Origin: Blasia pusilla
Lineage: Eukaryota
Assembly (NCBI GenBank): GCA_050084515.1
Contig: CM114271.1
Coordinates: forward strand, 3,658,001-3,722,000
Direction of reading: 5' to 3'
DNA: 64,000 nt
The notes beneath the pieces were generated by a model. It saw only the letters and a program-made list of their open reading frames with translations. It was not told the origin of the DNA and did not search any database. Both the position numbers and the translations under genes were made by a program. Position 1 is the stretch's first letter; each line of letters opens with the position of its first letter. Of this stretch, positions 2,404 through 63,564 are shown piece by piece.

Positions 2404-2405
2404 AT

Positions 2406-8454: not shown

Positions 8455-8458
8455 ACTA

Positions 8459-38227: not shown

Positions 38228-40798
38228 ATAGGGCAAGTTAAGGGTCTAGGGTTGGATGTCATGGTCTGTCGAGACCGAGTTTTTCATATGGATAACATTA
38301 GAGTTCATTTTATCGGTAGACTACAGAGCCAGTCGAGATCGAGTTTTTCATACAAATAACAAAAGAATTCAATTTATTTGATTCTCCAATTAAGAGGGGC
38401 AGAAGATGTTGTATAATTGGATTTATAGGCTATGAGGGTTGCTAGGACGTTGGACATTTCTTGCCCCCAAAACTTTTGGGGGCATGAAATTTAGTGAGGC
38501 CCTAGGGTCAAGAGGACGTTACGTCCATGGGATGTACCCTCATAGGTCCTCTTTGGCAAGATAAGGTGGCGAATTTTAGTGCACTACTGTCCAACCTATA
38601 TAAAATAGATCGATAAACATGTTTGATTGGTTTGGAAAAAGAAAATATGCCACCCATGTTTTTAGGGTCCATGTAGTGTTTGAAAATGAAGAAGTCATCC
38701 TCCCTTAACAGTATGGATTTTGTCTATGGGTCCTAGCGAACAACAAATATTTGGAGGAGTTTTTTGAGATGGATATTAGGAATGGGTATTCTTTGTAAGG
38801 TCATCTTGTAAATCCGATGATTTTTTTAATTGGCGCAAAAATTGTTGAATGAAACATTGATATGGAGAAGCTAGTGTCTTTGTAAAAATTCAATTTTTAG
38901 AAAGTTAAGAAAACATTTCAGTGAGATAAATAGGTGTATGCCCTTGGTGGTTGCGAGTTTACATGCAACACGATGGGGTTGAGTGGCACTTAATGGGCTC
39001 GACGATGTTTAAAAGATGTCAATCGCTACGAGATGGCCCCCTCATAAGATGAATCTGTTTTGGGGTTCTAATTGAAGATTGGGCATACAAGAATTTGAAA
39101 ATTGGGCCAAAAAAAAATTCAACCATATAAAATATCGGTAAATATTCTTAATCCACATGATATCTATCAAATATTCCCTACTAGAAAATGAAATTATATG
39201 TAATATTCTCTTTCCCATGCTCACTGTTTTGCAAGCTCTCCACTAACTCTATTCAGAGCTTGTTGAGTGACAACTAACCCCTTAATATCCAAGACTTGGA
39301 GCATCTTGGAGAATAATGTAAATACCTTTTACACCAAGCTATCCAAAAAAGCTACTCAAAACAACTAAGTGGATGGCTTTTCTCATACGATATATATTAG
39401 CCTTGTGGCCCTCATAGTGTACCAGTAGGTACTCGAGGCTAACGATGGGAAGTTTTAATTACCCATCATTAGCCACTTACATTGCAATGATGGACCCCAA
39501 CTTACCTTGAATAGACACTCACGGTTGCCAAATTGAACTCTCCAAAATTGACTCTAAATTAGCCAAACACACCTGTCAAGACATGCTAAACACCCAACGA
39601 CGATCCTTGTGTAGCAACACCATAACTAGGACCAGAATAGGAAACCCCACATCAAAAGAGGAAACCACAACAAAACCACACGATGAAACAACCTCTAGCA
39701 ACGTTGGACGGTTGGCCTAGGACCCATGGAACTTTTCCATGGGGACCGTATCTTAAAGTACAAGCAACGAGTCTTTATCTCTTTACAATGTGCAAAGCTA
39801 TTGGGCTTAAGTGGTAAACTCATGGTGTAGACGACGCAATAGCTAGAGGTTCTCTTGTTGATAATCATGTTTCTTTCGATATCGCTTATATTATTTTTTA
39901 TGTTGGTGAGTTTGGATTTTACAAGATTCCTCATTTTTTCTTTGTCCCTTGTCGGGTTGGCCTTTGTGTTCCCTAGCTCTATAAGTCCCCCTCTTTCTAC
40001 TTCTGATGATTGCTCCCACCTTCTTTTATTCAACTTGTTATTTCTTCATTTTGCATATTCTTCTCATAACCTTTGTGAAGAAGTAATCTTCGTATATAAG
40101 CATAATTGCCAATAATCATACCGATAAACACTTCTCCTAAGTGTGGAGAAAAATAGTCAAATCTTGACTTATGTTTCAAGCAAAGAGGCTCTTGCAAATT
40201 ATAAAGCTTCACTTCATTACTAATATAAACAAGTGAGGTGACTATGCAATATATGGTCATTAGATTTTACTTTGTAAAATTTTCCATTGAAAAGTTAGCA
40301 TGTGTATAAATAAATATTAAATGTATAATAAAATTTTCATTTTATGTTATGAAATTACTGAAATTTTTGTTTATTTCATGTAAGAATCTCCTCATACAAA
40401 ACATTTTGCATGTAAATTACCCTCTTCCTTTGAATATAAGTTCATAAGGTAAGCATGTATTGGAAAGTTATATCCCATAGAGATAACTGAATCCTTATTC
40501 ACAATGGAGTCAAAAGTAACGTAAGTACATAGCATATAATTTTTACAAGATTTATATTTTGTCATTATTTTCAAGGATGAATTCATAAAATAATTCCACA
40601 CAAGCGAGAATAATATTTAATTCATCATCCTCACAAGAGACCATATATATGATCTCTTTAAAGTTTCTTGGATAATTTCCATGATAAAGAAGTCTTGACA
40701 AAATTTCTCACTAAAGATTATAAGTTTTCCCCCAAATGGTGAATCTATCAAGGCAAGAGATACCAATCCCATGATATCTTATGGAGTATAATTCACAA

Positions 40799-40800
<2 letters not shown>

Positions 40801-40859
<59 letters not shown>
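40801..40859. repeat. (GA)n microsatellite
   Basis: Read directly. Confidence 0.98.
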
Positions 40860-40862
<3 letters not shown>

Positions 40863-42577
40863 TATTCTACACGACCATATCATAATCTTGAAAGTTAATT
40901 AAGTCCAAAGATAGTATGGCATTCAAGAACAACAACTTAGGGGTTTTTGTAATTACGTGACTTAATTCATATAAGAGATCCTATTTGAGTGGAACAAAAA
41001 TTCAACTCCATAATCTAGTGGATCGAATAGTTTTATTTTAAGATTGAAGGGTGAAATGGGTCAATGGAGTTGAGAATCTCAACAAGTCTCATAAACTTAT
41101 TCGGAGCAGAAGAACACTTCACTATTGTCCTCAAGAAGTCCCAATTGAATAGAAACTTCTTAAAATTTTGATATAGCACTCCATCCAAAGTTCCCAAAAA
41201 TTCATATAAAGTTGCACCTCGAACACGATGAAAAAGAAATCACAACTAATGACATTCTCCATTGTTTATGAAGAAGTATAATCATTTAGTACACTCTATA
41301 ATGCGCTCTTCTACCCAATTCTTCATATCAAAGTTAAGTTTTTAAATTGAATATAATATAAGAGAATGGGATGTATATTATAGTGCAATCTGTACTAGAT
41401 TACCAATAGGATGATCGCAATATTTTCTTCTTCGTATCCTATGAGTTCATCTTTTATTATACCAACGATAATATGAAGGAAACTAGAGATATACATATCA
41501 ACAAGCAAGAGGAAATAATCAAATACTTGTAAACCACTATGTTATGGCGATCTCCTTGTTTCTCTGAATAACATCCTTAAGCGCCTCATCATTATTGAAG
41601 TAAGCTATTTAAATAAACTATTTGTGCCATTAGTAGATGAACGGCTAATCTCACGATACGTGGATATTTTACAAACAAATCAAATTTCAAAATTTTCCAA
41701 CATGCCTCACAAGAAGAAATATATCTCACGCAATAAAGGAAGAAGTTAGTACAAATAGAAATAAATAACGAATCTTTATGAAAATATTTTAAGAAATCCT
41801 TAGGAGAATCAAATCATCCAAAGATTCTTATATGCATATTCTATTAGTATTTTATAACAAAAAGAGTGTTGGTATCTTATACTAAAATCAAGGATAATAT
41901 ATATGATTAATATAAAATCAAGGATAATACATAAGGCATGATCCATCGATTAACAACTATTTTTCAAAAATATTTGTAAATATGGATAGGGAATTTCCTA
42001 TCCACATATGGAGCATTGAGATTTAATTCTCCACATAGACCATTAATTATGCAATTATCCATACTAAAATAAATTATAGGATCAATATTGGATCAAGAAT
42101 TTCAACATATGTTATATTATCATAATCAAAAGCAATATGTGATTTATCCCCGCATGCCAAAATAATCAAAATACGAACATATGGAAAGTCTCTTTTTTGA
42201 AAGTCCACCACATGGATGCATACCAAAATATTACCAAAAATATTTTTTTTTCTTCATGAGTGTTAAAATCCTCCTCGTCTCCTTTAGTTGACCAAACAAT
42301 AATGTTCGTGTAATCTCATGCCACTTAGGATTACATGTCATGGTAAAAAAGTAATAAAAGTTAGGAGTAGTAGTCACTTGGGATATGTATGGATAGAAAA
42401 AGTGCATATTTTCGGAAGAAAAGATTTAGATAGTTAGAAAAAAGAAAAGGTATACGGTATTGAAGATTGAGTTACAGTCAAGCTCATGAGACACCTGAAC
42501 TGCTACATTTGGTACTCACACGAAGTAGGGAAGCTTAATCTTGGTTAGTCAGTTAAGCGCAATTATCTTAACTAGGG

Positions 42578-42704
42578 TGTTGTGCGCATACACATCGCTA
42601 CACAACATACATCGTTGTCACCGAACACACACACAAACACGCACGATCCCATGCTAACTCATGGCATCCAAACAACAAGACAAGAAGTACCAAAATATCT
42701 CCAA
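42578..42704 (+). repeat. Terminal inverted repeat (3' end of copy 2)
   Basis: Reverse complement of 51389-51515, about 11 mismatches in 127 bp by manual alignment. Confidence 0.92.
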
Positions 42705-42884
42705 TCGCCTCCTTAGCTGGTGGTTAGGTCCCTCTAACTCCAGAGAGCCATCTATCCCTACCTACCGTGATATACATCTCTCGGACGCTAAGAGCAAGAA
42801 GGCCAGTGCTCATGTGGTCCCATCATTAGTCGCCTTCTTGTCATCCATGTCACAGACATAAGTCAGAATGTATAAGTACCTACT

Positions 42885-43211
42885 CTATATACATCTGGGA
42901 CACATCCATTGTACATGAGGAACCCTAATGAGAGGTGGCGTCAAACATGCCATATGCCATCCTCTTGAACATCCATCACAGACTAGCATAGTGGCTGCAC
43001 CACGGACAGAACCACACAACATACACCGCAAGCTTGTAGGAACTATTGCTAAGCTCGGATCAACTGTACCATCAATGTTAGGAAGGTGACATGGCGCACA
43101 ATTACGCACGTGGTTCTTCCATACCATACCATCGCGTCCCTCCAGCAAGAGAACACCGGATGGCAAAACGTCACGCACTCTCAAGATAGTGCGCCATGCA
43201 GTCACATCCAA
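42885..43211 (-). pseudogene. Integrase C-terminal extension with PHD finger
   Basis: C4HC3: CMLC...[29 protein letters not shown]; in frame with integrase across a TAG at 43251. Confidence 0.92.
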
Positions 43212-43250
43212 CGTCGTCGGTGCCGTCTACTGCAAGTAGACATAATCTCC

Positions 43251-45790
43251 CTAATGAAACCTCCGGATAGTTGGTCGATAACTACCACCCCGAATAGTCG
43301 CATACCTCAACGTATCCCGATGCTGCGCGATCGCCAAGTTCTCGAACGTCATGGGCATCACTCTTCGAAACAACTCAGTCCTTTGAGAACATGCTCGCAT
43401 CCATACATCTGGGTCATCAAGGTCCAGGACCTCACCAACATCTCGATGAATGGCCGCAGGTAAATCTGGCTCTCGGCCATAAAGTAGCAAGTACGGTGAA
43501 AAAGACGCTAAGGATGCTTGCCTGCTGAATCTATATCCCATCGCCAACCACGGCAACTGGAGGTCCCAATCTCCTAGGTGACCTCTCTGCAAGCCATACT
43601 TGCGTAAACCCCTCTTCATCGTCTGCACAATTCTCTCCGCTAATCCATCCGCCTCGGGATGATCTCGCGAAGTCATGCGGTGGTCGATCAGCGCCTGATC
43701 ACACAAGGCCTGGAACTCACCGTGAAACTCGGTACCCTGGTCTGTCAACATCTTAACTGGTGCGCCATAATGACTCAGCACTCTGTCAAGGAAGGCATAA
43801 GCTACTCCCTCACTCGCTTTGTCAGGCAATGCAACCAACTCGATCCACTTCGAGAAGTGCTCAACCATCACCAACACATAACGACTGTGACACTCGGTCA
43901 AAGGCAAAGGTCCTGAAAAATCCAAACTCCATCTATACCCTAAGCGCATGATCGGTAATGGATACAATTTTGGAGTTGGAGCATTGAACGATGCTCGGAC
44001 TCGATCACACACCATGCACTTGGAAACAAATAACTCAACGTCAATCTGCATGCCTTGCCACCAATACTGAATCTGGAGCAAGTTGTACGTCTGCTTCACC
44101 CTAAAGTGACTCAACTCCTTGTGGGCATGCTGCACTAGTGGTGCTCTCTGTGAAGGATTCGGCACTACGCGTACTCTATCATCCTCCCAAACCCTCAAAA
44201 CATGTATCCCCTCCCAACGGAACCGTCTGGCCCGCTGTAGGATCCAATCCTGCTCTCTAGCACCCACGATTTCCGCAACGCTACCAGTATGAAGGAACTC
44301 CAAGACTACTCCATCATCATTAATATCTCGACCACCTATCGTCTCCTCACTGGCCTCGAGATCCAAGGACTCTCCACTAGACCTCGCCATCGAAGTCTCC
44401 ACACTCTGGCTCTCCATGGCCAACATGGCTAAATAGGCTGACTTGTGCCATTCTGGCACTGACTCCTCATCACTCTCTCTATGCCATCGAGCTCCAGTCG
44501 CATCTTGCTGGCTCGGGCATGGGTTACGACTCAACCCATCTGCATCTTGGTTGAGCATCCCAAGTCTATGTACCACCTGAAAATCATACTCCTGCAACAA
44601 TAGAGCCCATCTCGCAAGCTTCCCTGTAAGCTTGTTGGACTTCATCAACCACTTTAGTGGTTGATGATCAGTGATGATGGTAAAGGGGTTGCCGAATAAG
44701 TAACACCTCAAAATACGCGACAACCCACACTGCAGCCAAGCACTCACCCTCAAATGAGCTATACTTCGCCTCTGCAGTGTTGTTCGAGCGTCTAGCGTAA
44801 GCCACCACGAACTCTCTACCCTCATCATCATGTTGGGTGAGCACTGCTCCAAGCCCCAACATGCTCCAATCTGTGTGCAATTGGAAAGGACGCCCCTGAT
44901 CGGTCTCCTCAAGATGGGCGCGGACGTCAACCTATCCTTGAGCAAGTGAAATGCTCGCTCCAGCTCATCCCCCCAGTTCCACTTGTGATCTACCTTGGTC
45001 AGCAAGGTTAGCGGCTTCGCAATCGAACTGAATCCCTTGACGTACCGCCGATAGAAATTCGCCAATCCCATGAATGCGCGAACATGGCTCACGTTTGTAG
45101 GGCATGGAATGCGTGAGATAGCCTCTATCTTCATCTGCTAAACACCAAGGCCCCTTGGGTATATCGTATGACCCAAGTACTCAATCTGGTCATAGAAGAA
45201 CTTGCACTTGCCTCGATGTAGCTTCAGCCCATGTAGTTGCAATCGTCAAAACACCTCCTCAAAATGTCGCTCATGCTCCTCAATCGTGGCGGGAAAGACT
45301 ACAATGTCATCAATATAACACCTAGCGAAATCCAGACCAGCCAAGATCCTATCCATGACCCTCTGAAACTCATCCGAGGCGTTCTTTAACCCAAATGGTA
45401 AGAATGGCCACTAGAACAAACAATCCTTCCCGTGAGGATCGATGCCCCAAAATGCCGTCTTTTTCCTGTCCTCCAATTTGATAGGCAGTTGATGGTATTT
45501 GGCTCGCAAATCCAATGAACCAAAGACCTTTGCGTGACCAATCGCATCAAAGATCTCCTCAAGGATGGGCATGGCATACCTGTCGGACTTCGTCTGCCGA
45601 TTGATAGGTCGGTAATCCCCACACATCCGCCTATCCGTCCAGCTGCCATGCACATCCTTCTTGGTAGGCATGACAGTGGCTGATGCTTACTCCCCATGTG
45701 ACACCTCCAGTAGTCTTGCTCCGACCAAGTCCTGGCTCCTACTCTAAATCAGATCTCTCTCCATATCACTGTACCTGTAGGGTCGTCACT
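43251..45790 (-). pseudogene. RT, RNase H and integrase of copy 2
   Basis: RMCGDYRPINRQT, CYIDDIVVF, HTDWS..LGAVL, TDHQPL, HHCC, D(WSLDF)-D(LTDQG)-E(GLAER); several stops and frameshifts. Confidence 0.93.
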
Positions 45791-46284
45791 CGACAACTCA
45801 ATTCGGATCCCCGGTCCCTTCAGCGTACCCAAATCCTCCATGTTAAACGCAAAGCAGCTCCTATAACTCGTGAGGAACTGATGTATCCGGCGCCGCTCTC
45901 CTCCTGTCAACTTAGGGCCCATATCTGGCTCCCAAGTCTCCATCGTGACTACGATAGGACTCTCCGGTGCATATCGGGGGTTGCTTATGTGCAACCCCGT
46001 CTCGAACAATAACACTCGGCCGCTCTCCTCCAGCCAACTGCAAACTCTGATCTCCTCCACATGCACTGTCTAGAACCACGCTCGATGATGTGGCTATCAT
46101 CTCATGGCATACCTGCAAAACATCCCAAGAAGTCCAAGGGTGTCTCTCCCGATCTCCCCTAGTGTGTCGATCTCCTTGGGAGTTGCCCCCAGCCACTGCC
46201 TCCACCGTCTCGATAGACATGGGGCTCACCAACGCAACCGTTGTGATCTGTCGCGATCTCATACGACGTTGCTCCGCCACTTCC

Positions 46285-47280
46285 AAGCTGAGGATCCATG
46301 TCAAGCAGTTCAGGTCCATCGCCTGACCCAAGACATGGCGTCGTGATGCCTCTGACAGTGACGGTACTGCCGTCATTCCTATGGGAAATCCCATGGCTTG
46401 CTCTCTCTTTTCGGCGTTGGGCTCCACCAACCGCTGAACCTGGTTATCCCAAACCAAGCCAGGACCGGCCTTTTTGTATGCATAAGAAGCGGGAAAACTC
46501 ACAAACGTGGGCAAGGCTGCCCGCGGGCTGCCTACCCTATTGACCACAGTCAACGGTGGTCGATCATTGTGCCTCACTGCCTGTGATCGACAACCTGGAT
46601 CCAGAATGGAATCCACTAACAAATGGGAGGGGCGGTCCACTCTCCCATACGCCCTCCGTAACACCGCATGGGGCATCAAGTTGGTCCATCATAGATGTGG
46701 GCAATGGGCTCTAGAACCTACACTCGCCGCATCTAAGAATACTGTTGGGCCGATCCAGGCACGCACCTGATGAACACTCGTCACCACCTGTGACCTGAAG
46801 TCTCCTAAGATTGGCACATTCTCCTGAATGTAGGCTGGAGAACGAGACTGGTGCTCCTGCAACTGCCGTAAGACCCTCAACATCTCCCAAAACAACGTGG
46901 ATTGATTGTCAGCCAACCCACTGCCTCGTCCAGCACTCGATTGGCCCTCACATGGCCAACCGGAAATGACCAAATCAATGGTCCCTACCCGCTCTAAGTT
47001 CTCGCCCAAAGAACGTAAATACCCTCGTAAGGAAGCGTGGTATCCTGCATCATGGACGCTTGCATAATAGGTCAGGAAAACGTAGGCGTAACTGCGCCAC
47101 ATGTCGTAGTGAGATGCGCCTTGCAACATCATCACTCTCCACATACACGTAGTGCTGCACTCGTAATCCTACTTGCAAAATAGCAGCTAACCCGGTGCTA
47201 ATCCCTCCAAAGAGATCTAACACTCGAATACCCTCCTCGAGAATACACCACATAATGGGTGTGGTATCCAAGGGTGTCAT
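46285..47280 (-). pseudogene. DNMT3-like C5 cytosine DNA methyltransferase domain of copy 2 (disrupted)
   Basis: VLDLFGGIS; YVESD; DLVISGWPCEGQSSAG (PC codons 46950-46955); QENVP; AHCPHL*WTN; EKREQAMGFP; RRHVLGQAMDL. Confidence 0.92.
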
Positions 47281-47899
47281 CGTAGCACTCCCTGCTACCT
47301 CGGGTTCCTCAGACCCGTCATGCTCCGGTGTAAACGCCTCGCTCCACGCGGTCTACACGTGCTCATCTGCCAATCGTTGAAGCTCCTCAGTCAAGCCCCA
47401 CAGCGGCACCTCTCCTCAAACGAAACTCAAGTGCCCGCTCAACTTCGACGGTTCCACCGAACCCGAAATTGCAAAATCTATGAATGGGCTCCTTCCGTCA
47501 ACGTGGGAAAACCCACCCCCGTTCGAATCAGCCGGTGGGGTGCTTCAAAGCACGTCCATGAAACTTGGGACCGTGGTTTTACATCCAATACGTGGGCTAA
47601 AAGGAAGAAGATGAAGGAGGGAAGGGGGGTCAGATATAAAATTTTTAATTAATCATCCACTTTAAAGGGGTCTCGGCAACGAGCAACCTTCACAAAATGA
47701 TACGGCTTCCATTACACTCCTCTCCATAGAATTATCAAGAACGGGAGTATCCTCTGCATGGACATGTCCCTAAATCAAATCACTAGGCCAAGTGATGGCA
47801 CTGCTAAATGCTGCTAATGTTGCCATCTCTTGTGGCCGTTGCTCGATCATTGCACCTGTGAATCGAACGGGTAATTAGCTAAGGCGCCCATCACCTGAC

Positions 47900-48355
47900 T
47901 GGCATCCTGGTCTGTAGGATGCAGACTCCCCCCCAGTAATCCCGGGAAAACCCCATCGGGTATAACACTGATCCACCAACCAAGACGTCGTAGGACTCTG
48001 CATTAGTCACTATCGCCTTGGCTCGCACGACGGACTCATCTCTAGGATGTCTTTAGCGAATCCTCACCACGACCTCCTGTCGGGTGATATACTATGTGGT
48101 ACTTGCTCCACCCAAGGATGCCTGTATCCGAAATGGACAACGCTCCACATCGGCTCTCGTCAAGCCCAATCCTCTAAATGACGCTTTCCCCAACATCAGG
48201 GGTTGCGCTCCTGAATCCAACAAGACACGTTGCAGACTAAAAGCTCTATCTTCAGGACTCACCAACTCAAAGACCTCTCCTCGATTATCCAGCAACACAA
48301 CACCATGAGAAGCCATGGCACGCTCTATCGCGGGTCTAGAGGGCATCTCCGCCAT
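47900..48355 (-). pseudogene. Retropepsin-type aspartic protease of copy 2
   Basis: VLLDSGAQPLM active-site motif; downstream YDVLVG-like motif. Confidence 0.85.
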
Positions 48356-48930
48356 CCTAGCAGCCGTAGCCTGCTATGAATCTGACGTGGACGGCCCGAG
48401 CATCCGCTCCAAGGGCAGGTCCATCACCTCCTCTGCAATCATCTCTGAATGTGATGCAAGAACTCCAACTCCACGCTCACATAGTGAAGCGGTCACCCAA
48501 AAAGCCTCGGCGGACGTACCCCCCAACATCATAACATCGGAAGAAGAAAATAAAGAAGCGCGGTACACAATGGTGGCCGCCCCCAACAATGTCCTCCACA
48601 CATGCCCCTCCTGAGCATCAACAATAGGAGTCGTTGCACTCGCTTCTCCCATCGTCCTCCATGCTTGCACACCAACAACATCACCAACTCTCCAGGAACT
48701 CTAATCAGGATCCATCGATGGGGTCCTCATCGCCTCAGACAACGTGAAAGACTGAGGAAGCCTTGTCTATTTCCTGGCATCCCCTCGCTATGGATCCAAC
48801 TCTGTGGCTGCTCCATGCGTCACAACTGCGGCTGCCTCCATCTAGGCAATCCCGCACATCCAACTTGGATCCTCCATATCTCTAGCTGCTCCATATGATG
48901 TCGATGCTACGGATCCGGCATCAGGTAATC

Positions 48931-50325
48931 TCAATGCCATAGCGGCAATCTGCTCTTGTAGCTGATGTACCTGAGGAGCCATCCTAGCCTCTCGCTCGGC
49001 ATCTCCCTCGACACGTCTAGGTGGTAGGACTCTCGGAGAATCTTTATGCCCAAACCACCTCCACGGGAAGCTCCACCACCGTGTTGGGCAACTCCAGCTC
49101 CTCGTCCTCCAACGGGACTACCTGGTGCACGATCTCTAGGCCCACCCAGATCGGCTACTTGCTCTAGTGCCCTCTTTGGCCCTCGTTCCGGACGTAACTC
49201 AGGATGTAAACTCAAAAACATGGCGCGTGTATGACCATATCTCTGACAATAGTCACACTGATAACCTCCTGGTGCAGCACCATCTCCTCCTCCATGTTGA
49301 GGCACACGTCCATGACCCTAACGAGTGCAATCGCGCTGATGATGGGCTCCACCACATGACCAACAAGTAATAGAAGGCGGTTGCTACTGAGCAGCATATG
49401 AAGGCGGAGGTCTCTATGGCACGGCCTCTCGGTATCCTCCCTGAGCTCGTGATGCCATATTCAACCTATCTCGGAGTCCACGTTGCTGCACAGGTGGTGC
49501 GGACAATCGTGATTGCTCTCGCCTAGAACCCATGGTGGCTACGCTCTCCTCCGCCATGTTGCGCTCAATGTTCTCATCGGTCCTAAAAATATCTCTCAAC
49601 GTAAGGGAGGTGTTCATAAGAAGCACCGGTGTCCGCAGGGTCCGATCCATCTACGCGTACCATGATTGGATAGCCTGAGCCTCTATCACCCCTTGAGTGA
49701 AGTTGATCAACCGGCGCAATTGAGTGTAAGTCTCACGTAAACTCTCATCCGGGTGCCTCTGGAAGTTGTTGATGCTCCGCAACTTCTCCGTCCGTACCCC
49801 CTGGTAGCTCGCCCTGAACTCAACAAAGAACTCAACCACGGGGTTGAACTTGTGACAAACCCGACTAGACGGTGCAACTTCTCCAATGCGAGTGACCCCT
49901 CCTAAAACATCACTAGTGGAAGAGGAAGTAGCCTCTCCTGAATCCTCCTCCTCCTCTGGGAACGGCTCCGTCCATAACATAAAGTGTGGATCATAGTAGA
50001 GCCTCCACGCCTCGATCTCACGTGCATATCTTTGAGAGAACTGATGGTAATTGTCCACGGGCGCCCCCTCTAAATCGTGGAACATACTAGTCCATGCAAT
50101 AAACAGGTTAAACTCTCTAGAGTTCCTAGCTCGCTCTGAATCACACAAACTCCTTAACTCCGCAATGAAGTCGTGTAGCTCTATGGTGCCTATAGCACCC
50201 AAAAACCTACGCGGTCCTCTACCTTGGTCGTCCATCTCGTACGCCCAACTGGTAGGACCACTCGATGTGTACGGTGGATCACTAACACACTCCTCTACAC
50301 GCTCCCCCTCCTTTGAAGACGACAC
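48931..50325 (-). pseudogene. Gag-like region with two zinc knuckles
   Basis: ORF 49651-50325 (FQRHPDESLRETYTQLRRL), CWSCGGAHHQRDC and CDYCQRYGHTRAMF. Confidence 0.75.
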
Positions 50326-51388
50326 AGAAGGAGAGGTGGTCTCTCACTTGGAGACCCTTGAAACCTCGCATCACTCCGAGTAAACCCTCTAGAGCTACTC
50401 TGAGGTCCACTACCTCGCCTCTCAAAATCCTAAAAGGACGTCGTGATGGCCCTCGTGCCCCTCTCACATGATCACTCTCAACCTCGTGAGTAATCTCTCA
50501 ATCACTCATCCCAAACATCGGCACTCGATCTACACTCTCCCTCCACGAGACGTGTAACAAGCGGCAACAAGCCGCGTGGTGCGGAAAATCGATCAGGCTA
50601 TCATCTCATAGACAACCTACCCTCAACTCTGGGCATCCCACACAGGTCTATGTCCCCTAAACCACATACATAAATAATGCTCTCAGCATCCACACAACCC
50701 AATATCCCCAAATAAACTACCCAAATCCTAGAATCCCTCACGCGTGCAGGGTAAAGGACCAGAATGGATAACCTGAATACACGTCGATGTCACTCCTCAG
50801 CAACAGCAAATCTCGACCCTAACTCGGTCATGGAGACAACTCCTCCAATCAGCAAGTCATACTCCTCCCGTACTGACGTTGCTCAAAACTCCTTGATAGA
50901 CAGTGCGACTCCAACGGAACGATGCGACGTTGCAGGCGGCACGGAAAGGCTACGAACCGCACGGCCGTCGATGGTGGGATGCGCCACTCGGCGGCATACC
51001 CTCCTCAATCAACAATAAACCCACACTCTCCTCCACAATGACGGTGCGGTGCGGCCATAAGCGGCAATCGGCGGCGCGTTGCGGCTACGAGCGTCACAAC
51101 ACAGTACTCGATCGTCGTCAAACGACTACCAATCACAACATAGCATCATGAAATCAAAACTCAAACACCATAATTGAAGGTCATCTGCCATCACTGGTTG
51201 ATGACAAAACTGTGATGACGGTGGCGGCCAAAACAAAGTATGTGGTGGCGACGCAAGTCAGAGAATCATCGAACATCGTGGAAGATCCTCCACTCCGTAA
51301 CGGCGGCAATGCCAACCAAAGGGTGGACAACGGAAGGTGGATCGTTGACGGTGACGGTTGACTGTTGATGGTGACGTTGACGGTTGAA

Positions 51389-51515
51389 TTGGAGATATTT
51401 TGGTACTTCTTGTCTCGTTGTTTGGATGCCATGAAATAGCATGGGATCGTGCATGTTTGTGTGTGTGTTTGGTAACAGCAATGTATGTTGTGTAGCGATG
51501 TGTACGCGCACGATA
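51389..51515 (-). repeat. Terminal inverted repeat (5' end of copy 2)
   Basis: Reverse complement of 42578-42704; ORF track shows MASKQ.DKKYQNISN on opposite strands at the two ends. Confidence 0.92.
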
Positions 51516-51713
51516 TGGTTAATCACAATTAGTCTAACTCAATACTATCATTAGGGTTAGGGTTAGGCTATGTCCCATAGGCTATGTCCTATGGGACATA
51601 GCCTATGGGACCAACCTCCACTCATTCTCTCATTGCAAGTTTTGTTCTCCATGGTAATGTGTGAGTGTGAGAGTCGTTTCCCACCAGTTATGCTTCTTTA
51701 GCAATTTCCCACA

Positions 51714-51725
51714 TGATATTAGAGC
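51714..51725 (+). other. Degenerate tRNA-iMet primer-binding site of copia B
   Basis: TGATATTAGAGC vs canonical TGGTATCAGAGC, directly after LTR-terminal CA. Confidence 0.8.
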
Positions 51726-52244
51726 GATAGGAGAACATTACTTGAAATTCTTGGTGTTTGAGGGGATAAGAGAGGCAACAGAAGGCAAAATTTTAGTTTG
51801 GGAGAAGGAAATGTTATTCAGAGCTCATTGGGTGCAGATTTCAAGTGGAGCTTTGACGGTGATAAAACTTTGGAGGCATTTTTTAGGGCTTTCCCAGTCC
51901 ATTTAGCCATCTGGGTCCGTAACAACTAGAACGATGCCAAAGGCTTATTCTAGCCACTACAAATGAATGGTTCCAAAAGCTCATTGAGAGCTTTCCAACG
52001 CACCCAAAATCGCTTGATTATGAGATTCTGAGCTCCTGCAGTAGCAATTTCAGTGTAGGAAAGTGCAATTAGTGAAGAAAAGTTGTGGAGTTTGCTCTCT
52101 ACAGGCCAATTTCGACTAGTTCTTTCATACAGTTGATCAATTTTGGAAAATTTCAAGTCAATTTCTATGTAGGAATGGTCTATGCTTCAATTGGAGTAGT
52201 AGAGAGCCTGAAATTATATTTTTTTGTGAGTGAAATCGTTCGTC

Positions 52245-55200
52245 ATGGAGCATTCCTCAACTGATATGATACATGAGAAGCTAGATAAACAGAATTACAA
52301 TGTTTGGAAGTTTCGCATGAAAAACTTTCTCGTGGGTCAAGAACTATGGGAGCTTGTCATAGGTGATGAGGCCAAGCTTGAAGGTGACTCAACAGACTTG
52401 AATGTTCGCGCCTGGAACAAACGCGCAAGGCAAGTAATCCACTGTATTTCAATAACGATCAGTTTGCCAATGATAGGTCACATTCAAGATTTTGATATTC
52501 CGAAGGAGGCCTGGGATGCATTGGAAAAGTTGTTCCATACATCTATCAAGGCCAAAAAGCTTCAATTGAAACAGGAATTGAACGAAATGAGGAAATGATC
52601 GTAGAGCATCAATGATTATATTTTGAGTATCAGACATATTGTTGATCACTTGAATAGCTTTGGAGTGACAGTAGAAGATGATGATATGAGTTTGTTCACT
52701 CTTCAAGGCCTTCCAAAGGATTATAAGTCCTTTGAGATATCTATCTCTGTGAGAGAAGTATCCAACCTTTCAAGAGTTAGTCTCACTGTTAATCAATGAA
52801 GAGATGCGCCTAGTAGGCAACGGTAATTGCTCTAGTCTGCAAGAGATTGCGCTATTTGCATGTTATGGATCAAACAGAGGCAGGGGTCGTGGCACAAGCT
52901 TCCGTGGTCGAAGTGGATATCAAGCATATGTAGGAAGAGGCACTCAATATAATTTCACTCAATCAACTATGAACCAATACCAGACACAATCACAAGGTGG
53001 TGATAGTGGAAACCGTTGGGATCGAGGTCAGCAGTAGAGGGTCCATGGATCTTGCAATTACTGTGGGATAAAGGGTCACTATGCAAATTTTTGCTTCAAG
53101 AAGAAGGCAGATATCTCTGTAGGACAGATAATAGAACAGGGTTATCAAGTGAAATTTAACGCAGATGGTTGTTGCATTGAAACAATGGATGACCAGACTA
53201 CGATAGCCAAAGGAACTAGATTTGGCAGAATGTTCAAATTAGATATTTTCTATGCGAGATATTCAAACAACAATGTATGGTCAAATCGGCCAACAAGTCA
53301 CAGATCTAAATATGTGGCATATAAGAATTGGACATATAAATCTTCAAAAATTATAGATTCTTTCATCATCTAATATAGTAATAGGACTCCCTAAATTAGC
53401 GAGTCCTGCTACGTTAGAGGTATGTCCTCCTTGCCAATTTGGAAAACAAGCTAGATTTCTTTTTCCAAAGCAAGATAGAAGAGCATCCAGAATATTGGAG
53501 TTGATCCACAATGATTTGTGGACAACATCATAACATAGCCTTATTGGTTGTCAGTACTTTGTTTCATTTATTGATGACTTCTATAGGTATATATGGGTAT
53601 ACTTTCTGAAAGCCAAGTCAGAGGTGTTCTCAGTGTTCCAAACATTCAGAGTTCTAGTAGAAAACCAGACTGGACAACACATTCTAAAATTACGTTGTGA
53701 TGGAGGAGGAGGGTATCTTTCAACAGAGTTTGATGACTATTTATATGAGCATGGCATCCAACGTCAAGTGACTTGCCGTTATACTCCACAACAAAATGGA
53801 GTGGCCAAGAGGAAGAATCGACATATTGCTGAAGCGGCACGAGCTATGCTGAATGAGAAGAACATGCCTAAGGTCTATTGGGTAGAGGTTGTAGCATGTG
53901 CAGTCTTCTTAATCAACCGAACTCCAACAACATGAGTTCATAATGAAACTCCATTCGAAGTCTTCACAAGAAGTAAACCTGATTAGACCCCAAGTCTGAA
54001 AGATGTATCTTCATTGGCTATGCTGATGGAATTAAGGGATATAAGTGCTACATTCCATCCTCTAGGCAGCTTATTATTAGTCAGGATGTTATCTTTGATG
54101 AGCTAAAGTCATGGTATCCTTCATCTGAGCATCTTCCACCTCTAAACTCGTCTGTTGAGGGGGGAGAATAGGATTGCAAACCAACAGACATTGTCTTCAA
54201 CTTCCCCAAGTACTAGTCCAGGATTAGGAGAGGTCCTAGATTCATCAGTTAAATCTGTGATTCCATGGATGGGAAGAGTACGTATTCAATCTTTTGACAC
54301 TAGTTAGAGGTCGAGTCAGGTGTCAGAGGCATCTACCTCTGAACAACAACTTCGTAGATCAAATAGAGTTACACATCTAGTTCATTTTAGGGTATGTGAT
54401 TCTGACTCCTCGTTATATGTCTTGAGAGAACAAGATCATACGGTTTTCATTATGTTGTATGTTGACGATCTCCTTATTATTGGGAATAGTGAAGAAATGG
54501 TATAATAAGTCAAGCTTAAGTTACAAGAAGAATTTGATATGAAGGACTTGGGAGAACTCAAGTACTTCCTTGGTATTGAGTTTATTAAGATAGGAGAGAG
54601 CATGTGGTTACTACAACGATAATATGCTTTTCATATGCTTTCAAAATATTGTATGACGGCTTGTAGTCAATCTCTATACCGTTGGATCAGAGTGTGAAGC
54701 TAAGAGTGGATGAAGGAGAGTTGCTTGCAGATTCTAATATGTACATGCGTATGGTTGAAAGTTTGATGGATCTAAGTATAACCAGACCAGATTTGAGCTA
54801 TGTTGTTGGCCTAGTGAGCCAATTTATGTAAGCAACTCGAAAACCTCACCTTGATGTTGTGAGGAGGATTATGCGGTATGTGAAATTCTCTATTCAATTC
54901 GGGCTTCAATTTGACCCTTCTCCTAGTTTTCAACTACAAGGATTCACAGATGTTGATTGGGCAGGAAGCGTGTCTGATCGACACTCCACATCTGGTTATA
55001 CATTTACTTTGGGAAGCGTAGTTATAAGTTGGGCTTCAAATAAGCAACCTACAATTGCTTCATCTTCAATAGAGGCTGAGTACAGAGGAGCAACCAATGT
55101 AGCATGTGAGGCGGTGTGGCTTTATCGATTACTTGTTGAGATTGATGTTAGTAACTTAGGACCTAGTGTAATATATGCAGAAAATATTAGTAGCATCAAG

Positions 55201-55399
55201 CTAGCTAATAACCCTGTGTTTCATGCTCGTACAAAGCATGTTAAGATGCACTATCATTTTATCAGAGAGAAAGTGCTTGCAGGAGAAATTGATCTTGTGT
55301 ATATAGGTACAGATCAGCAAATTGCTGACATCTTTACAAAGACATTGTCTATAGATAAGTTTGAGATGTTTAGAAATGATTTAGCGTTAGAGATATCGA
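52245..55399 (+). pseudogene. Copia B gag-pol remnant (protease and most of RT deleted)
   Basis: KLDKQNYNVWKFRMK gag start, CNYCGIKGHYANFC knuckle, LRCDGGGGY...TPQQNGVA integrase, RT 3' end, FTDVDWAG...IADIFTK RNase H. Confidence 0.9.
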
Positions 55400-55596
55400 C
55401 TAGGGTTAGTTAATCACAGTTAGTCTAACTCGAGACTATGGTTAAGGTTAGGGTTAGGGTTGCTTGTACATACCCTATATAATTGAGAAGGGGACCAGCC
55501 TCCACTCATTCTCTCATTGCAAATTTTGTTCTCCATTGTGGTGTGTGAGTATGAGAGCCGTTTCCGACCAATTATGCTTCTTTAGAAATTTTCACA
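55400..55596 (+). repeat. 3' LTR of copia B, lacking PPT and first ~110 bp
   Basis: Comparison with 2061-2403. Confidence 0.85.
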
Positions 55597-55693
55597 TACG
55601 GATCAAAGGTACCAATTAGAATCTCCAACCATCCTACACACAAAGTCTTACAAAAATAGAATGTATAAAGTAGGATGGAGGTTATGTGATTAA

Positions 55694-55939
55694 TATTATG
55701 AACATACACATAGCCATAAAACATACATTGCATCAACCACACAAAATATTGCACCCATTCATTCATCCTAAAAATATAAATGTGGAGGCCAGTAGTTACC
55801 AAAATATCTCCATAAATAAAATGTAAAATAGACGTAGTTCTCACAAATACCTCCATAAATGCAAAACTCTCTCTCTCTTTCTTTCTCTTTCTTTCTTTCT
55901 TTCTTTCTTTCTTTTTCTCTCTTTCTTTCTTTCTTTCTT

Positions 55940-55996
<57 letters not shown>

Positions 55997-56350
55997 CAAC
56001 AAGGAGCACTTTAGCTCCACCGCCTCATAGAAAAGAGGTTCAACAACAAAACAATGAGCTCCCAAACTCTCTCCCAAAATCCTTTCCTTGGTCACATCCA
56101 CAAAGAAGTTATCTCCTTGATCCCAAACCTGATTTAGTGGATCAAAGGTCATATTCTATAAATATAAAGTTAAATATTTAACAATAGGGAGCTTATCCGA
56201 AGTTGTAAGTTCTTCAAATAGGCTCCAAATAACCCCAAACAAAGGGGACAACTCCTCTTTCGGATTATCCTACTCCTCAACAAATCATTTATGACCTATT
56301 GGATTTGACTTCTTGTCTCCCTTAGAGTATTGCACGAATACTCTACGTTC
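55694..56350 (+). repeat. Old, CpG-depleted third copy of the ~640-bp unit, with an expanded CT/CTTT microsatellite (55867-55993)
   Basis: Colinear blocks CATACACAT, ACCAAAATATCTCCA, TAGTTCTCACA, AAGAGGTTCAACAA, AATGAGCTC, GTAAGTT, AAACAAAGGGGA. Confidence 0.6.
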
Positions 56351-56364
56351 CACCATAAAAGATA

Positions 56365-56545
56365 CTAGCCAGTATCCGTGTTGTGCAAGGATGAATGAAA
56401 ATTAGCTTGAGAAGATAAAGGGCTCAAATTTCAAAAGAGGCTAGTGGGGAGAACAACACCTTTCAATCAATTAGAGGCCAAAACAGACAAGTGTCCTCAA
56501 GAGGGAAGGCACCCCTATAAAGGCACTCTCCCATAATATAAAAGA
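56365..56545 (-). mobile_element. Small non-autonomous Helitron-like element (family 1), degenerate
   Basis: On minus strand: A|TCTTTTATATTATGGGAGAGTGCCTT ... GCACAACACGGA ... CTAG|T. Confidence 0.55.
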
Positions 56546-58058
56546 TTATATTGATCCTTAAAGAGAAGTATATTACAATGAGTCTGCAATTGACAAGATT
56601 TTGTTGTGAATACATATTCCATATCTCATACCTTTATTTTCAATAAGATAGTAACTATTATTTTGATTTTAATATGTATTTGGTAGTATCAATCTTGATC
56701 TAACTGGAGATGCAACAGGGGATTCTTATAAGAGGTTGGGTTCAGAGGAATAGAAGAATTCATAGATGAATAATCACACTTTGTTACACCAAAGGGGATT
56801 ATCTTTTGCTTGCAGCTAAATTTTGAGTCTAATTATCAACTCTGCGACTATCTTGTGCTTGCAGTCATGCGACTTATTTGCAAATTATAATTAAGTCTCG
56901 ATTCTTTTGCAAGTCTCAACATTTGCAAGCTAGTTGAAAATCATACCACTTGCAAGACAACCGCATATTACATTGCAAACTAAGTTGCGATGGAGTTCCA
57001 AAGTGCGATTCTAGAAACTCAAAAAATTCGAATATCGAGACTTGCAACTAAGCCATAACTTGCGACTATTTTTCGAGAGTCAAAACTCACAAATTATGAC
57101 TACGTTATAAGTCTTGTGGGTTGTAAATCAAAATTTATGAGTTATGACACAAAATTATTGGCCATAAATTCCCCTTTTGCCTTCAATTTTCTCCATTTCC
57201 ACTTTTCCTCCAAGCTTTCCAAGGCTCCTCTCATCACTTTGCAACCCCTTTCTTTCTATAGTAGAGCTAACTCTTAATTATTTTCGGGTGGGAGTTTTCT
57301 TTTATATTGAGAGACATATTGATGATTAAATTTTATTGTCTTCCATGTTTTGTTCTAAAATTCAAGTGAACAAAGAAAAAAATCCATCCTAACAAAATTG
57401 GAAGGAGCCAAATCCCTCTTAAACATGTCTTTCATAAACCCGAATATGAGTCTAAATGGAGCAAAAAAGATCAAAAAACAACTAGTTTGCAAGTGTTGAA
57501 AACCATTACTTTGCGATTGTGTTGCAATTATGTTTTTGCAACTTATTTACGACTAGGCAGACTTATAAGCTCTTTGCGATCCAAGTGTGAGTATCGGGCG
57601 GTTGTGTTCTGGCTAATTTTAAGTCATTGCAATTGTATTTCAAGTATTATAAAATGACACTTCAAATTAAAGTCATGATGTAATTGCAAAGTGTTGCTCG
57701 AAATCATAAGCGTGCGACTATGTTATGGCTATCACACTCGCAAATTTAAAATTTCCTTGCATCTATATATGTAGCCATTATGTTGCGATTGTTTTTCTCT
57801 CACACCCGCAAAATTTCTCACAAGGTAGAAGTGTTAGACAAAGAGAAACTTGCGTAGATGGATTCATTTATTGCCACAAAAGATCGTTTCTCAAAGTCTT
57901 GAGGTTGTGTGTAGATCTCAATTTCCTTGTGGACGATTCTAGCTTGTTAGAGAAAGAGACGAGTTCTTAAGTAAATATGCCTCCACTTCCTTAAACTTAT
58001 GGGCCATACAATGGTGAGGTTATATTGATATACCAAACCAATAAACAACAGCACGCAA

Positions 58059-58300
58059 TCTATATTATTATTGGAGAGTGCCTTCTTGATTTGCAAACAC
58101 CTTCTTGATTTGCAAATTGTTTGACATGCGGCAACTAGGCAGCAAGAATTTTTCACACGCTACGGGTAGCAGATTTTTCTTTAAAATTTATGTGTAATAT
58201 CATTAGTCCTTTCACTCACGTCCCCTCCTTTTCACGTGCCGCACGAAGGACTTCTCAAATACTTTTTTATTTCCCGTGCCTCGTACGGGCACCTTACTAG
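58059..58300 (+). mobile_element. Small non-autonomous Helitron-like element (family 1)
   Basis: A|TC start; CCCGTGCCTCGTACGGG hairpin; CTAG|T end; no TSD. Confidence 0.75.
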
Positions 58301-59037
58301 TCATACTATTCAAGGCGTTAGCCCTTGCTTAGATAGTCCCAATGAAAGGCATGTGTGAAGCCTTTCAATTTTTATATAATTTTGCCCATACTAAGCCAAA
58401 ACTTGAATAGAAAATAGGTTTTAATAATTATATCAATTTTTGTTTCAAATAAAATTTAAAAACTAGAATTTCTGTGAACGGATTGTGAGTCTTTTTCATG
58501 ATAAATTTATTTTTTCATTTTAAAATTCTAAAATCTAAATTAAATATTAAGGAAAAACTAAAATTTTTAATTTCAAGTTAATTTTAGAAGGGAAATTGCA
58601 TATTAATTTAGAAAATTAAAAAGAATGATAATAGTAGAATAGTGGAAATTTCCTTATTCTTCAAAAAAGATGAAAAATATTTTAATTAATTTTTTATTTT
58701 CAAGCTTTAAATTGTGAGGGATTTCAAAAAAAAAATTGAGACAAACTTTGGTTCAAAATGAGTGATTTTTTTTCACTAATTGAGAGATAGGAGCTGGAAA
58801 AATAAGGATAATTGCTTTCTTTCTAAATTAATAAGGGAAAAGATAAGCATTCCTTACAAATCAAAATTAGAGTCTCATGATTATTCGTATATTTAAGAGA
58901 AAAATTATCTTTGCTATTTATTTTTCAACTTCATAATTTCAACATGTGTATGATGTAATGGTTTAACTTTCCATTTGTGAGGTATTTTCATTTCCATCAA
59001 TCGGGCTGAGTGCATCGCACGGACAAAACATTACTAG
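58301..59037 (+). mobile_element. AT-rich non-autonomous Helitron-like element (family 2)
   Basis: Starts TCATACTATT, ends GTGCATCGCAC hairpin then CTAG|T; homologous copy starts at 63720. Confidence 0.6.
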
Positions 59038-60833: not shown

Positions 60834-61034
60834 TCTATATTATTATTGGAGAGTACCTTCTTGATTTGCAAACACGTCTTTGTTTGATATGTAGCAACCG
60901 GGCAGCAAGAATTTTTTTTATTATGGGGCAGAAAATAAATATTAATCCCTTTGAGGCAACAACAACAAGAAGAAGATTTTGTGTGTAACTAATTAGTCCC
61001 TCCACTCATGTGCATAGCACGAGCTACCCACTAG
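60834..61034 (+). mobile_element. Small non-autonomous Helitron-like element (family 1)
   Basis: A|TCTATATTATTATTGGAGAG start; GTGCATAGCAC hairpin; CTAG|T end. Confidence 0.7.
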
Positions 61035-62550: not shown

Positions 62551-63564
62551 CGTTGCGACCCTCATAACCAAACGAGTGCCAAGCGGAACATCAAAACTCT
62601 AGCGGGCTCACACTAGGAGGGTTTGCGCGTTGGAGTGGTGTCTTGAGAGACGCAAAAGACACAAGAGATGAGACGAGAGAAAGGTCGAGTGTTTCATGCG
62701 TTTATAGTAACAACTAGGAAACCTGAACCAAACATCAACCAAGACTTGAGAGGAGACGAGTCTAGGAAGAGTGGCTGCCAAAGAGGTGAGAACCGGATTT
62801 GGAACGTGATTGTTATTTGGGGTTTTAACTATATTTTGGACCATTACTTTTAGTCCCAAGATGAATTTTGGACAAGTAAGGTGGCGTTGGAAAACTTATG
62901 AAAAATCACTTCCAATGCACTAAAGATCTTAGAAAATGCATAAGCACAGACTGAGAAATTGCCCAAAAACAACTATATGAGGAGTTTGGTTGAGGGATAA
63001 AAAGAGGGGCTTGAATGTCTCTTCCCCAAAAGTTAGGGGGAGGTGGAGAACCCTAGAAGTACTAGTAAGGGGGAAAGGTCTCTAAGAGTGCTTGGGACTC
63101 GCACCCCACTTTGGGGCGCCACGAGGTGAACCAAGGGCACAGAATGGATTGGGAGTTTGACGTTGGGATTCCAAACCCAAACCAAGTCAGATAAAGTGGA
63201 TTTCGGTGGCCACTATTGAATTCCAACCCGCCACTCATTTAAGTGGATCTTGGTTAGGGGTTTATGCGAAGTCCATTGGATAGTTGGGATCGCTAAGCGT
63301 GCGAACGCTGTTTTAAGTGTCTAGGCTATCCAAAAAGGATGTCCCAAGTCTCAGAAGACTTGCCCATGTTGGGAAGCTAGGAACAAGGAAGGTGGAGCTT
63401 GACACATGGACGAGTTGAGAACTCGGAGAGTTGGAAGGCTGATTGGCCTAGACCTGACTAATGTGAGTGTGTTTAGGTGCAAATTAATAGTAAAAGCGTG
63501 TCCTATTAAACGTACGCTTCCGCAATAATAGAGATTGACGTTTAAGGGAAGTAGGCGCATGACA
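62551..63564 (+). mobile_element. Solo LTR (~1 kb) of an unidentified LTR retrotransposon
   Basis: CGTTG (TGTTG in the 38227 copy)...GACA; flanks ATATA/CTATA as probable 5-bp TSD; two partial copies elsewhere in window. Confidence 0.7.

Follow-up and report, generated by a model that had tools for sequence, protein, structure and literature searches.

Introduction

Cytosine methylation is the main route by which plants silence transposons. Why, then, should a retrotransposon carry the coding sequence of a DNA methyltransferase, and does that sequence truly belong to the element? The question is raised by a 64,000-nucleotide stretch of the Blasia pusilla genome (GenBank assembly GCA_050084515.1, contig CM114271.1, positions 3,658,001 to 3,722,000 of the forward strand), here called the window, in which an earlier note made from the sequence alone had seen a C5 DNA methyltransferase inside a Ty3/gypsy polyprotein. 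Our analysis indicates that the window contains two decayed copies of a gypsy-like element with an integral DNMT3-like methyltransferase, a reading to which we assign a probability of roughly 0.8. The copies belong to a family that we call type A, with the domain order protease-methyltransferase or methyltransferase-reverse transcriptase (RT). Sequence comparison places this family, common to liverworts and Sphagnum mosses, as the sister of a larger type B, in which the domain lies between RNase H and integrase.

Results

Two decayed copies of one element

Copy 1 reads, in order, gag, CCHC knuckle, protease, methyltransferase, RT, RNase H, integrase and PHD finger (Table 1), with the methyltransferase between the LLDSGAQP protease and an RT that begins at about 45785. 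The methyltransferase is split over three stop-to-stop fragments (47352-47050, 47168-46689 and 46688-45912). The middle one, of 159 aa (46689-47168), matches Pfam PF00145 (DNA_methylase) at E=3.5e-9, with 37 bits against a cut-off of 22, so that the expected assignment to this family holds for copy 1; the first and last fragments, taken singly, have no Pfam match. The domain of an intact relative aligns by tblastn to 47280-47059 (57% identity) and 47045-46284 (66%), and within it motif I (DLFGGIS, 47197-47217), the catalytic Pro-Cys (46950-46955) and ENV (46815-46823) are followed in order by AH..L.WTN, MGFP and RHVLGQ. Motif IV reads PCE where relatives have PCQ, and an in-frame TGA (46689-46691) falls inside motif VIII, at the first Trp of the relatives' LWWTN. 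The gag-protease frame of a related locus, L008, covers 50313-49117 of the gag region at 36% identity, and its pol matches that of copy 1 at 65% identity with five stops (both tblastn). Pfam recognises RT_RNaseH (4.1e-12), Integrase_H2C2 (1.4e-13) and rve (5.8e-13), with RVT_1 under its cut-off at 8.4e-4; the protease fragment alone has no Pfam match.

Copy 2 is 83% identical to copy 1 over 4077 aligned bases of DNA. About 1.8 kb of copy 1 (49196-47386) is absent between 3864 and 3944 of copy 2, and the protease is gone. The earlier placement of the domain between protease and RT in both copies can therefore be seen directly in copy 1 and in relatives only. The intact relative's domain matches copy 2 at 4050-4940 (48% identity, five stops) and 4945-5046 (79%) by tblastn, and the PCQG and ENV residues are retained; none of the four methyltransferase fragments of this copy matches PF00145. 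Downstream, Pfam finds RVT_1 (1.1e-12), RT_RNaseH (4e-31), Integrase_H2C2 (3.4e-16) and rve (2.5e-10). Both copies are pseudogenes and encode no working enzyme: the earlier note was correct that the catalytic Pro-Cys and ENV survive in each, but the enzyme survives in neither.

A DNMT3-like domain in canonical order

Motifs I, IV, VI, VIII, IX and X stand in canonical order, as six blocks kept across the 26 sequences of an alignment (A2), and the translations bear out the full C5 motif set in the order first claimed. In this alignment P110, N155 and W109 are invariant and C111, E154 and V156 are at least 90% conserved; relatives score 27.6-45.5 bits against PF00145. When compared with solved structures, a single relative (P0002) finds DNMT3A first (8.4e-11), then DNMT3B, DNMT3C, DRM, bacterial enzymes and DNMT2. 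A profile built from the 26 members ranks DNMT3A (4.8e-18), DNMT3B (2.4e-15) and DNMT3C (6.8e-15) ahead of tobacco DRM (2.3e-9), Arabidopsis DRM2 (5.4e-7), HhaI (8.8e-5) and DNMT2 (1.4e-3), and none of its 49 matches among solved structures is DNMT1 or a chromomethylase. Both DRM matches cover motifs I-VI only, as expected because DRM is permuted; the circular permutation of the DRM type (VI-X before I-V) is absent from the element domain, whose order runs from I to X. A Foldseek search with an AlphaFold model of the intact L001 domain, usable as a ranking only, returned DNMT3A, DNMT3B and DNMT3C throughout among the matches listed, to rank 48. By these sequence, profile and fold rankings the domain is DNMT3-like and not permuted like DRM, in agreement with the earlier note.

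Cellular DNMT3 enzymes (human DNMT3A/B and mouse DNMT3C, and plant DNMT3 such as MpDNMT3b) accordingly come out on top in both sequence and fold comparisons, and they share the motif order and details of motifs VIII-X. The element domain differs from them in that identity is about 20%, motif IV reads PCQ and not PCN, and the conserved stretch between motifs VIII and IX is longer. It also lacks PWWP and ADD domains and forms part of a retroelement polyprotein; Pfam scans for PWWP, ADD or the N-terminal domain of plant DNMT3 found none of these, only retroelement domains and the PHD finger after the integrase.

A bryophyte family under purifying selection

A search with the domain returned 75 proteins of 230-734 aa and 21 of 735-2095 aa. 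The named hosts are Marchantia polymorpha (14 of the 21 long proteins), Riccia sorocarpa, Calypogeia fissa and five Sphagnum species or hybrids, and these bryophyte relatives are 60-69% identical to the window domain. A scan of metagenome contigs found 62 loci that carry the family. The Pfam order is CCHC, protease, methyltransferase in one relative (P0088, with matches to zf-CCHC and, at E=8.8e-5, Asp_protease_2) and methyltransferase, RT, RNase H in another (P0081), and unbroken Gag-protease-methyltransferase frames reach 1278 aa in Marchantia (P0079) and 1322 aa in P0102. The methyltransferase domain is intronless. A profile search of 1.84 billion representatives gave 6326 matches at E<=0.001, 1447 at 1e-10 and 403 at 1e-30, and the best 150 of the 6326 all score like the transposon-borne family (E<=1e-57). 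Because the domain recurs in two window copies, 62 loci and named bryophyte proteins, it is a family trait and not a one-off capture, as had been proposed, and sequence comparison shows it to be an integral and selected part of the element.

That selection can be read from ratios (omega) of nonsynonymous (dN) to synonymous (dS) change, obtained by Nei-Gojobori counts with stop codons skipped. Between copies 1 and 2 the methyltransferase core gives dN 0.146 and dS 0.581, an omega of 0.25 over 316 codons, which is not the neutral value that would have spoken against the earlier note; omega is 0.35 over the RT-RNase H-integrase part (660 codons) and reaches 0.94 in the linker that follows the methyltransferase (75 codons). 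The two intact loci, L001 and L008, give dN 0.29, dS 1.79 and omega 0.16. The window domain differs from those of 19 loci by dN 0.25-0.34, with synonymous sites saturated against 18 and dS 2.5 against the remaining one. Close, dead copies show a higher omega (median 0.49 in 166 pairs), which is what neutral decay following insertion should produce. The codon counts thus indicate that the domain evolved under purifying selection. L008, at its positions 321-6809, is a near-intact relative with three frames in one phase and single stops between them; its CpG observed/expected ratio of 0.28 marks very strong depletion, other copies lying at 0.57-0.78.

A conserved stop ahead of pol

The long protein models stop a few dozen residues past motif X, and in the loci that end is a stop codon, after which pol follows in the same frame. 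The earlier note had described a single polyprotein: methyltransferase core and pol start do lie in phase at 22 of the 33 loci, with indels in the remaining 11, but in relatives a conserved in-frame stop splits it. At 20 of 21 junctions this stop is TAG (n=11) or TAA (n=9), followed by CAA CCN. L008, 65% identical to L001 in the methyltransferase domain, reads TAG CAA CCA, as does copy 2. In relatives, therefore, Gag-protease-methyltransferase is separated from RT-RNase H-integrase-PHD by a conserved stop, which copy 2 has as well.

Gag-pol read-through is the strategy of gammaretroviruses, and we lean towards the view that the stop described here, judged by its context, is likewise leaky. In a study of tobacco mosaic virus (TMV) RNA in plants, the six nucleotides CAR YYA after UAG are given as essential for read-through (PMC2754532). 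TMV too has its in-frame stop between an abundant upstream product and a polymerase, and the downstream hexanucleotide of copy 2 and L008, CAA CCA, is of the identical type; most family loci differ, with CCC as the second codon. We met no report of a read-through signal in a plant gypsy element, though no search was aimed at one.

A PHD finger and the element ends

The PHD finger after the integrase is kept in 15 loci at 63-77% identity and occurs in type B as well. Its nearest solved counterparts are those of CHD4, KDM5A/B (PHD1), Lid, KMT2D, KAT6A, DPF3, PHF12, PHF21A, ATXR5, AIRE and UHRF1, most of which bind the unmodified histone H3 tail. Chromoviruses, gypsy elements with a chromodomain after the integrase, likewise have a histone-reader module fused to the integrase C-terminus, whereas in the window's family the reader is a PHD finger. 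By analogy with those chromodomains, the finger may perhaps steer the integrase to chromatin with an unmodified H3 tail. In locus L028 a second, distant match to the finger (17681-18004, 38% identity to the window's) lies about 2 kb downstream of the first and is perhaps part of an adjacent element of the other type.

The coding region keeps the Ty3/gypsy order, in which Gag with CCHC comes first and is followed by aspartic protease, RT, RNase H and DDE integrase. A tyrosine recombinase of the DIRS-like kind was not found: rve and Integrase_H2C2 are present and Pfam gives no phage-integrase match. The repeats are less usual. Locus L010 has A (1676-2017), the coding region, B (10238-10350), A (10350-10691) and B (10693-10805), with a G-run just ahead of the first B, a layout A-coding-B-A-B and not two simple long terminal repeats. 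In L001 direct repeats lie 8747 bases apart and are cut by the locus end. No tRNA primer-binding site was obvious after repeat A on inspection by eye.

At their 5' ends both window copies are unusual. Copy 1 is bounded by inverted B copies of 124-128 nt that are 92.7% alike, and repeat A is not at its 5' end; its B segment matches those of L010 and L001 at 73-76% identity over the outer 60 or so nucleotides, and its 5' end lies about 1280 bases from the gag start codon, in agreement with the roughly 1330 of L010 and L001. It was inserted between two halves of a repeat that is unbroken at 2089-2403, and genomic reads of run X18 pass straight from 42576/42578 to 51518; these represent other copies of the flanking repeat, in which the site is empty. 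No clear target-site duplication is visible at its ends, where the flanking repeat copies differ at the junction. The repeat, 'g-f', thus stands contiguous at 2089-2403 beside copy 2, split by copy 1 (42457-42576 and 51516-51713) and, a third time, at 55399-55593, there with a diverged A-like piece (56106-56300) after it. Each of the two window elements is in contact with this repeat, which may be a preferred target or belong to a larger composite repeat.

In copy 2 the B-A-B order at the 3' end is that of L010, and over its outer 60 bases B matches the B segments of L010 and L001 at 73-79% identity. The inverted A-B piece directly upstream of its truncated gag is probably the end of another, inverted copy, because it is 84% identical to the 3' A-B whereas B1 and B2 agree at 94.7%. 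For the same reason we set aside a DIRS1-like reading of copy 2, with inverted terminal repeats and an internal complementary region.

A sister group that orders the domains differently

Two distant matches (P0094 and P0097, 39% identity) combine RT, RNase H, methyltransferase, integrase and PHD finger in that order. A search with P0094 found 64 such proteins, most with the corresponding Pfam domains, three of them (P0155, P0157 and P0173) from the chlorophyte Hariotina reticulata in EukProt; the group also occurs in many metagenomes, and the polyproteins often have a long C-terminal extension. By BLAST against reference pieces, 321 proteins with the methyltransferase fall into 150 with type B order or parts of it, 40 of type A and 131 with the domain alone.

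Type B elements have the methyltransferase clade, RT, integrase and PHD finger in common with the window's family at 31-48% identity (RT-RNase H 42%, integrase 31-43%, PHD region 39-48%, methyltransferase 34-39%), but place the methyltransferase after RNase H. In a FastTree phylogeny of 197 domains one branch parts all 22 type A from all 132 type B rows, with support of 75-96 that varies with the unlabelled rows taken in; a short IQ-TREE search on the 22 type A and 40 randomly drawn of the 132 type B rows gave this branch an SH-aLRT (approximate likelihood-ratio test) value of 100. The simplest reading of these trees, which are unrooted, is one element lineage in which the methyltransferase module would have moved once. 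Our literature search found no paper that names the type B group.

Transcripts and copy number

Three RNA runs with the same species label (X19-X21) place 215, 301 and 254 reads on 42000-52000. In nearly all of them the first mate maps to the plus strand, which is the sense direction of the element provided that the library was prepared in the usual stranded manner. The reads lie mostly on the integrase-PHD-B end, where depth with the first mate on plus is at most 23 and that of the other direction mostly 0-2.5 (once 4.6). Reads at least 99% alike to copy 1 number only 2, 11 and 5. Genomic depth in run X18 is about 5-200 summed over the interior bins, about 450 in the B bin and 0.3 in one flank bin, a rough sign, at ten to several hundred times the flank bin, that the genome has many copies of the family.

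Features of the window

The coordinates of the two copies are collected in Table 1. Apart from them, frames that read by eye like a Ty1/copia RT and RNase H (for example VLYVDNLLITG), broken by stops, lie on the plus strand at 588-1955. On the minus strand, 19379-27367 is an uninterrupted open frame of 2662 aa without a Pfam family, whose high content of E, L, K and Q resembles that of a giant coiled-coil protein; a protein-atlas search gave generic coiled-coil clusters only, and a 189-base tandem repeat in 3.2 copies lies within it at 21801-22402. The strong GC and AT skew of the region at 20-28 kb is due to this frame. Stretches at 40001-42000 and 52000-64000 are AT-rich (GC 0.30-0.39) and flank the GC-richer element (0.51-0.53). 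No Rfam families and no tRNAs were found within the 64-kb window.

Table 1. Element features in the window, in positions counted from its first letter
Feature	Position	Strand	Basis
Copy 1, whole inserted unit, 8.9 kb, degenerate	42578-51515	minus	self-BLAST and junction sequences
Copy 1 5' terminal 'a' segment, inverted copy of 3' terminal B	51388-51513	minus	92.7% complementary to 42582-42705
Copy 1 gag open frame (GPRRFLGAIGTIELHDF...)	49651-50343	minus	stop-to-stop frames
Copy 1 fragment with CCHC zinc knuckle (CDYCQRYGH)	48931-49317	minus	read off translation
Copy 1 aspartic protease fragment, LLDSGAQP (LLDSGAQPLMLG)	48092-48373	minus	open-frame translation
Copy 1 DNMT3-like C5 DNA methyltransferase domain, pseudogenised	46284-47280	minus	PF00145, tblastn, alignment A2, read-through translation
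Copy 1 codon AAG where relatives and copy 2 have the conserved stop	45984-45986	minus	
Copy 1 RT, RNase H, integrase, several frames	43251-45785	minus	Pfam, tblastn
Copy 1 C-terminal integrase extension with PHD finger	42885-43226	minus	Pfam PF00628, E=9.3e-11
Copy 1 3' terminal B segment, G-rich tract just before	42578-42705	minus	self-BLAST, junction sequences
Inverted A-B piece directly upstream of copy 2 truncated gag	2402-3032	.	84% identical in reverse to 8460-9110
Copy 2, second element copy	about 3.05-9.1 kb	plus	open frames, Pfam, tblastn
Copy 2 gag remnant, then ~1.8 kb deletion of CCHC and protease region	3049-3864	plus	self-BLAST, tblastn
Copy 2 methyltransferase domain, 5 stops, at least 1 frameshift	4050-5046	plus	tblastn
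Copy 2 TAG CAA CCA, stop with CAR-YYA context between methyltransferase frame and pol	5305-5313	plus	
Copy 2 RT, RNase H, integrase	5317-7840	plus	Pfam, tblastn
Copy 2 PHD finger remnant	8049-8147	plus	tblastn, 82% identity to copy 1 PHD
Copy 2 3' repeat module: B1 8327-8455, A2 8460-8976, B2 8977-9110	8327-9110	plus	B1/B2 94.7% identical

Discussion

Retrotransposons with C5 methyltransferases have been described before, and the dinoflagellate and charophyte examples that the earlier note mentioned are indeed those of de Mendoza et al. 2018 (PMC5890265). The closest described system is KnitGypsy-Dnmt3 of the charophyte Klebsormidium nitens. Like the window's family, it is a gypsy-type element with a DDE integrase whose coding region includes an intronless, unpermuted DNMT3-like domain; both show purifying selection on the domain (published Ka/Ks <0.2, against 0.16-0.25 here), and the published repeat layout A-coding-B-A-B recurs in L010 and, as a B-A-B module, in window copy 2. 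The two differ in their hosts, in our case land plants (by name, liverworts and Sphagnum), and in the position of the domain: it is described as lying "in the Pol polyprotein ORF" of the charophyte element, a comparison by description only, and here ends the Gag-protease frame. The dinoflagellate SymbioDIRS-Dnmt3 and SymbioLINE-Dnmt elements also bear C5 methyltransferases, the SymbioDIRS enzymes methylate CG de novo in yeast, and alternative domain orders occur within one family there too; but these elements belong to the tyrosine recombinase or long interspersed nuclear element (LINE) classes, their hosts are unrelated, and the authors regard the acquisitions as independent (PMC5890265).

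We found no land-plant gypsy element with a DNMT in a literature search that covered neither subscription journals nor the supplements of PMC5890265. In their available parts, papers of 2025 and 2026 from the same group still cite only the Klebsormidium case for streptophytes, and papers on DNMT3 in Marchantia and Physcomitrium are silent about copies within transposons. The earlier note knew of no described land-plant family, and this stands for the literature searched; members are, however, already public in protein databases (Marchantia, Sphagnum and others), unnamed or labelled methyltransferase only. The family thus seems to be undescribed in land plants. What is new is the land-plant hosts, the domain in the Gag-protease frame before a candidate leaky-stop signal, and a sister group with another order.

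If the stop is leaky, Gag-protease-methyltransferase would be the main product, with the methyltransferase made in Gag-like amounts, and the RT-RNase H-integrase-PHD fusion would be a minority read-through product. One possibility, which we put forward tentatively and at well under even odds, is that in intact copies the protease would release an active de novo methyltransferase within the particle, where it could methylate the element's own complementary DNA (cDNA) before or at integration. The window copies can no longer carry out any of these steps. A bolder extension, and as a whole an unlikely one, would see in these bryophyte gypsy elements a self-contained epigenetic 'write and read' kit: the methyltransferase, as the last domain of the Gag-protease precursor before a leaky stop of TMV type, would be loaded into every particle, the integrase would bring a reader of unmodified H3, and new cDNA would be pre-methylated in a host-like pattern when it enters the genome. 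Being shared with chlorophyte algae, such a kit would be old enough for methyltransferase domains to have been traded with host DNMT3 genes.

Several observations weigh against the reading of an integral DNMT3-like methyltransferase or against the functions proposed for it. Both copies in hand are dead: in copy 1 the frame is shifted near 47045-47065, and in copy 2 a stop immediately precedes the Pro-Cys (G*PCQG), with four further stops elsewhere. Elsewhere the full domain is free of stops and frameshifts in only two of 57 loci with a methyltransferase match (L001 and L008). The DNMT3-like assignment draws on rankings against solved structures, and the AlphaFold model of the L001 domain is weak, with a mean pLDDT (predicted local distance difference test) of 54.8 that drops below 50 in the motif VIII-IX stretch. 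As to the stop, the second codon after it departs in most loci from the YYA of the published consensus, and a distant member, L054, has a different stop context. The RNA reads are few and almost all 95-99% alike, so that they come from other family copies, and their depth over the methyltransferase bins is 0.1-4.0, with 0 in the other direction. CpG observed/expected in the element (0.70-0.78, window mean 0.74) gives no sign of a special methylation history. Finally, the isolated Klebsormidium Gypsy-Dnmt3 domain produced no methylation in yeast, a result that its authors call inconclusive (PMC5890265).

How far do these observations favour other explanations? The last of them fits a pseudo-enzyme, structural in the particle, or an enzyme that binds or methylates the genomic RNA, without DNA methyltransferase activity in either case, and the same paper raises RNA methylation for the LINE-borne enzymes (PMC5890265). 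We consider this quite improbable, given that FGG (the S-adenosylmethionine-binding motif), Pro-Cys, ENV and the arginine-rich motif VIII vary little or not at all among 26 sequences and that the closest relatives are DNA enzymes of the DNMT3 kind, far ahead of DNMT2. A different objection concerns not the chemistry but the target: enzyme made as part of the abundant Gag-protease frame would far exceed the needs of a single cDNA, and a chromatin-reading PHD finger travels with the element, so the methyltransferase might act in trans on host chromatin (the surroundings of the insertion, competing elements or genes) or mainly tether the particle or pre-integration complex to DNA. Published discussion leaves the role open (PMC5890265), but no nuclear-targeting or histone-reading partner was seen in the methyltransferase frame, and action in trans seems to us doubtful.

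The decay of the copies bears on another alternative, that the family has died out in this genome and left its methyltransferase as a relic, the RNA reads being due to read-through or noise at dead copies. Neither window copy is intact, most related loci outside the window are likewise dead, and only a handful of RNA reads match copy 1 at 99% or more; yet genomic depth implies many further copies and the RNA reads are biased to the sense direction. We hold extinction to be a serious but minority possibility, and one that bears on present activity only, not on the identity of the domain. It is the identity that would be at stake if a host methyltransferase fragment had merely been interrupted by, or nested in, an ordinary gypsy element, and nested insertions are generally frequent in the window. 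Such chance juxtaposition is refuted by the shared position, and frame barring indels, in two copies that differ by 17% and across dozens of loci and proteins of several genera, by the absence of introns, and by the conserved stop and linker that tie the domain to pol; its probability is close to nil. The reading of an integral, DNMT3-like methyltransferase in a gypsy-like family is thus the one that we retain.

A transposon that brings its own de novo methyltransferase reverses the usual picture of silencing. Such elements had been described from dinoflagellates and from one charophyte, whose enzyme could not be shown to work, and the present family extends the phenomenon to land plants. The split into two domain orders, types A and B, suggests that the methyltransferase module has moved within one element lineage, and the conserved context of the putative leaky stop predicts the amount of enzyme relative to RT. 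For genome annotation, models of this kind should not be tallied as host DNMT genes. Furthermore, the genetically tractable Marchantia polymorpha has gene models with an unbroken Gag-protease-methyltransferase frame, so that both the activity of the enzyme and the methylation of cDNA before integration become directly testable.

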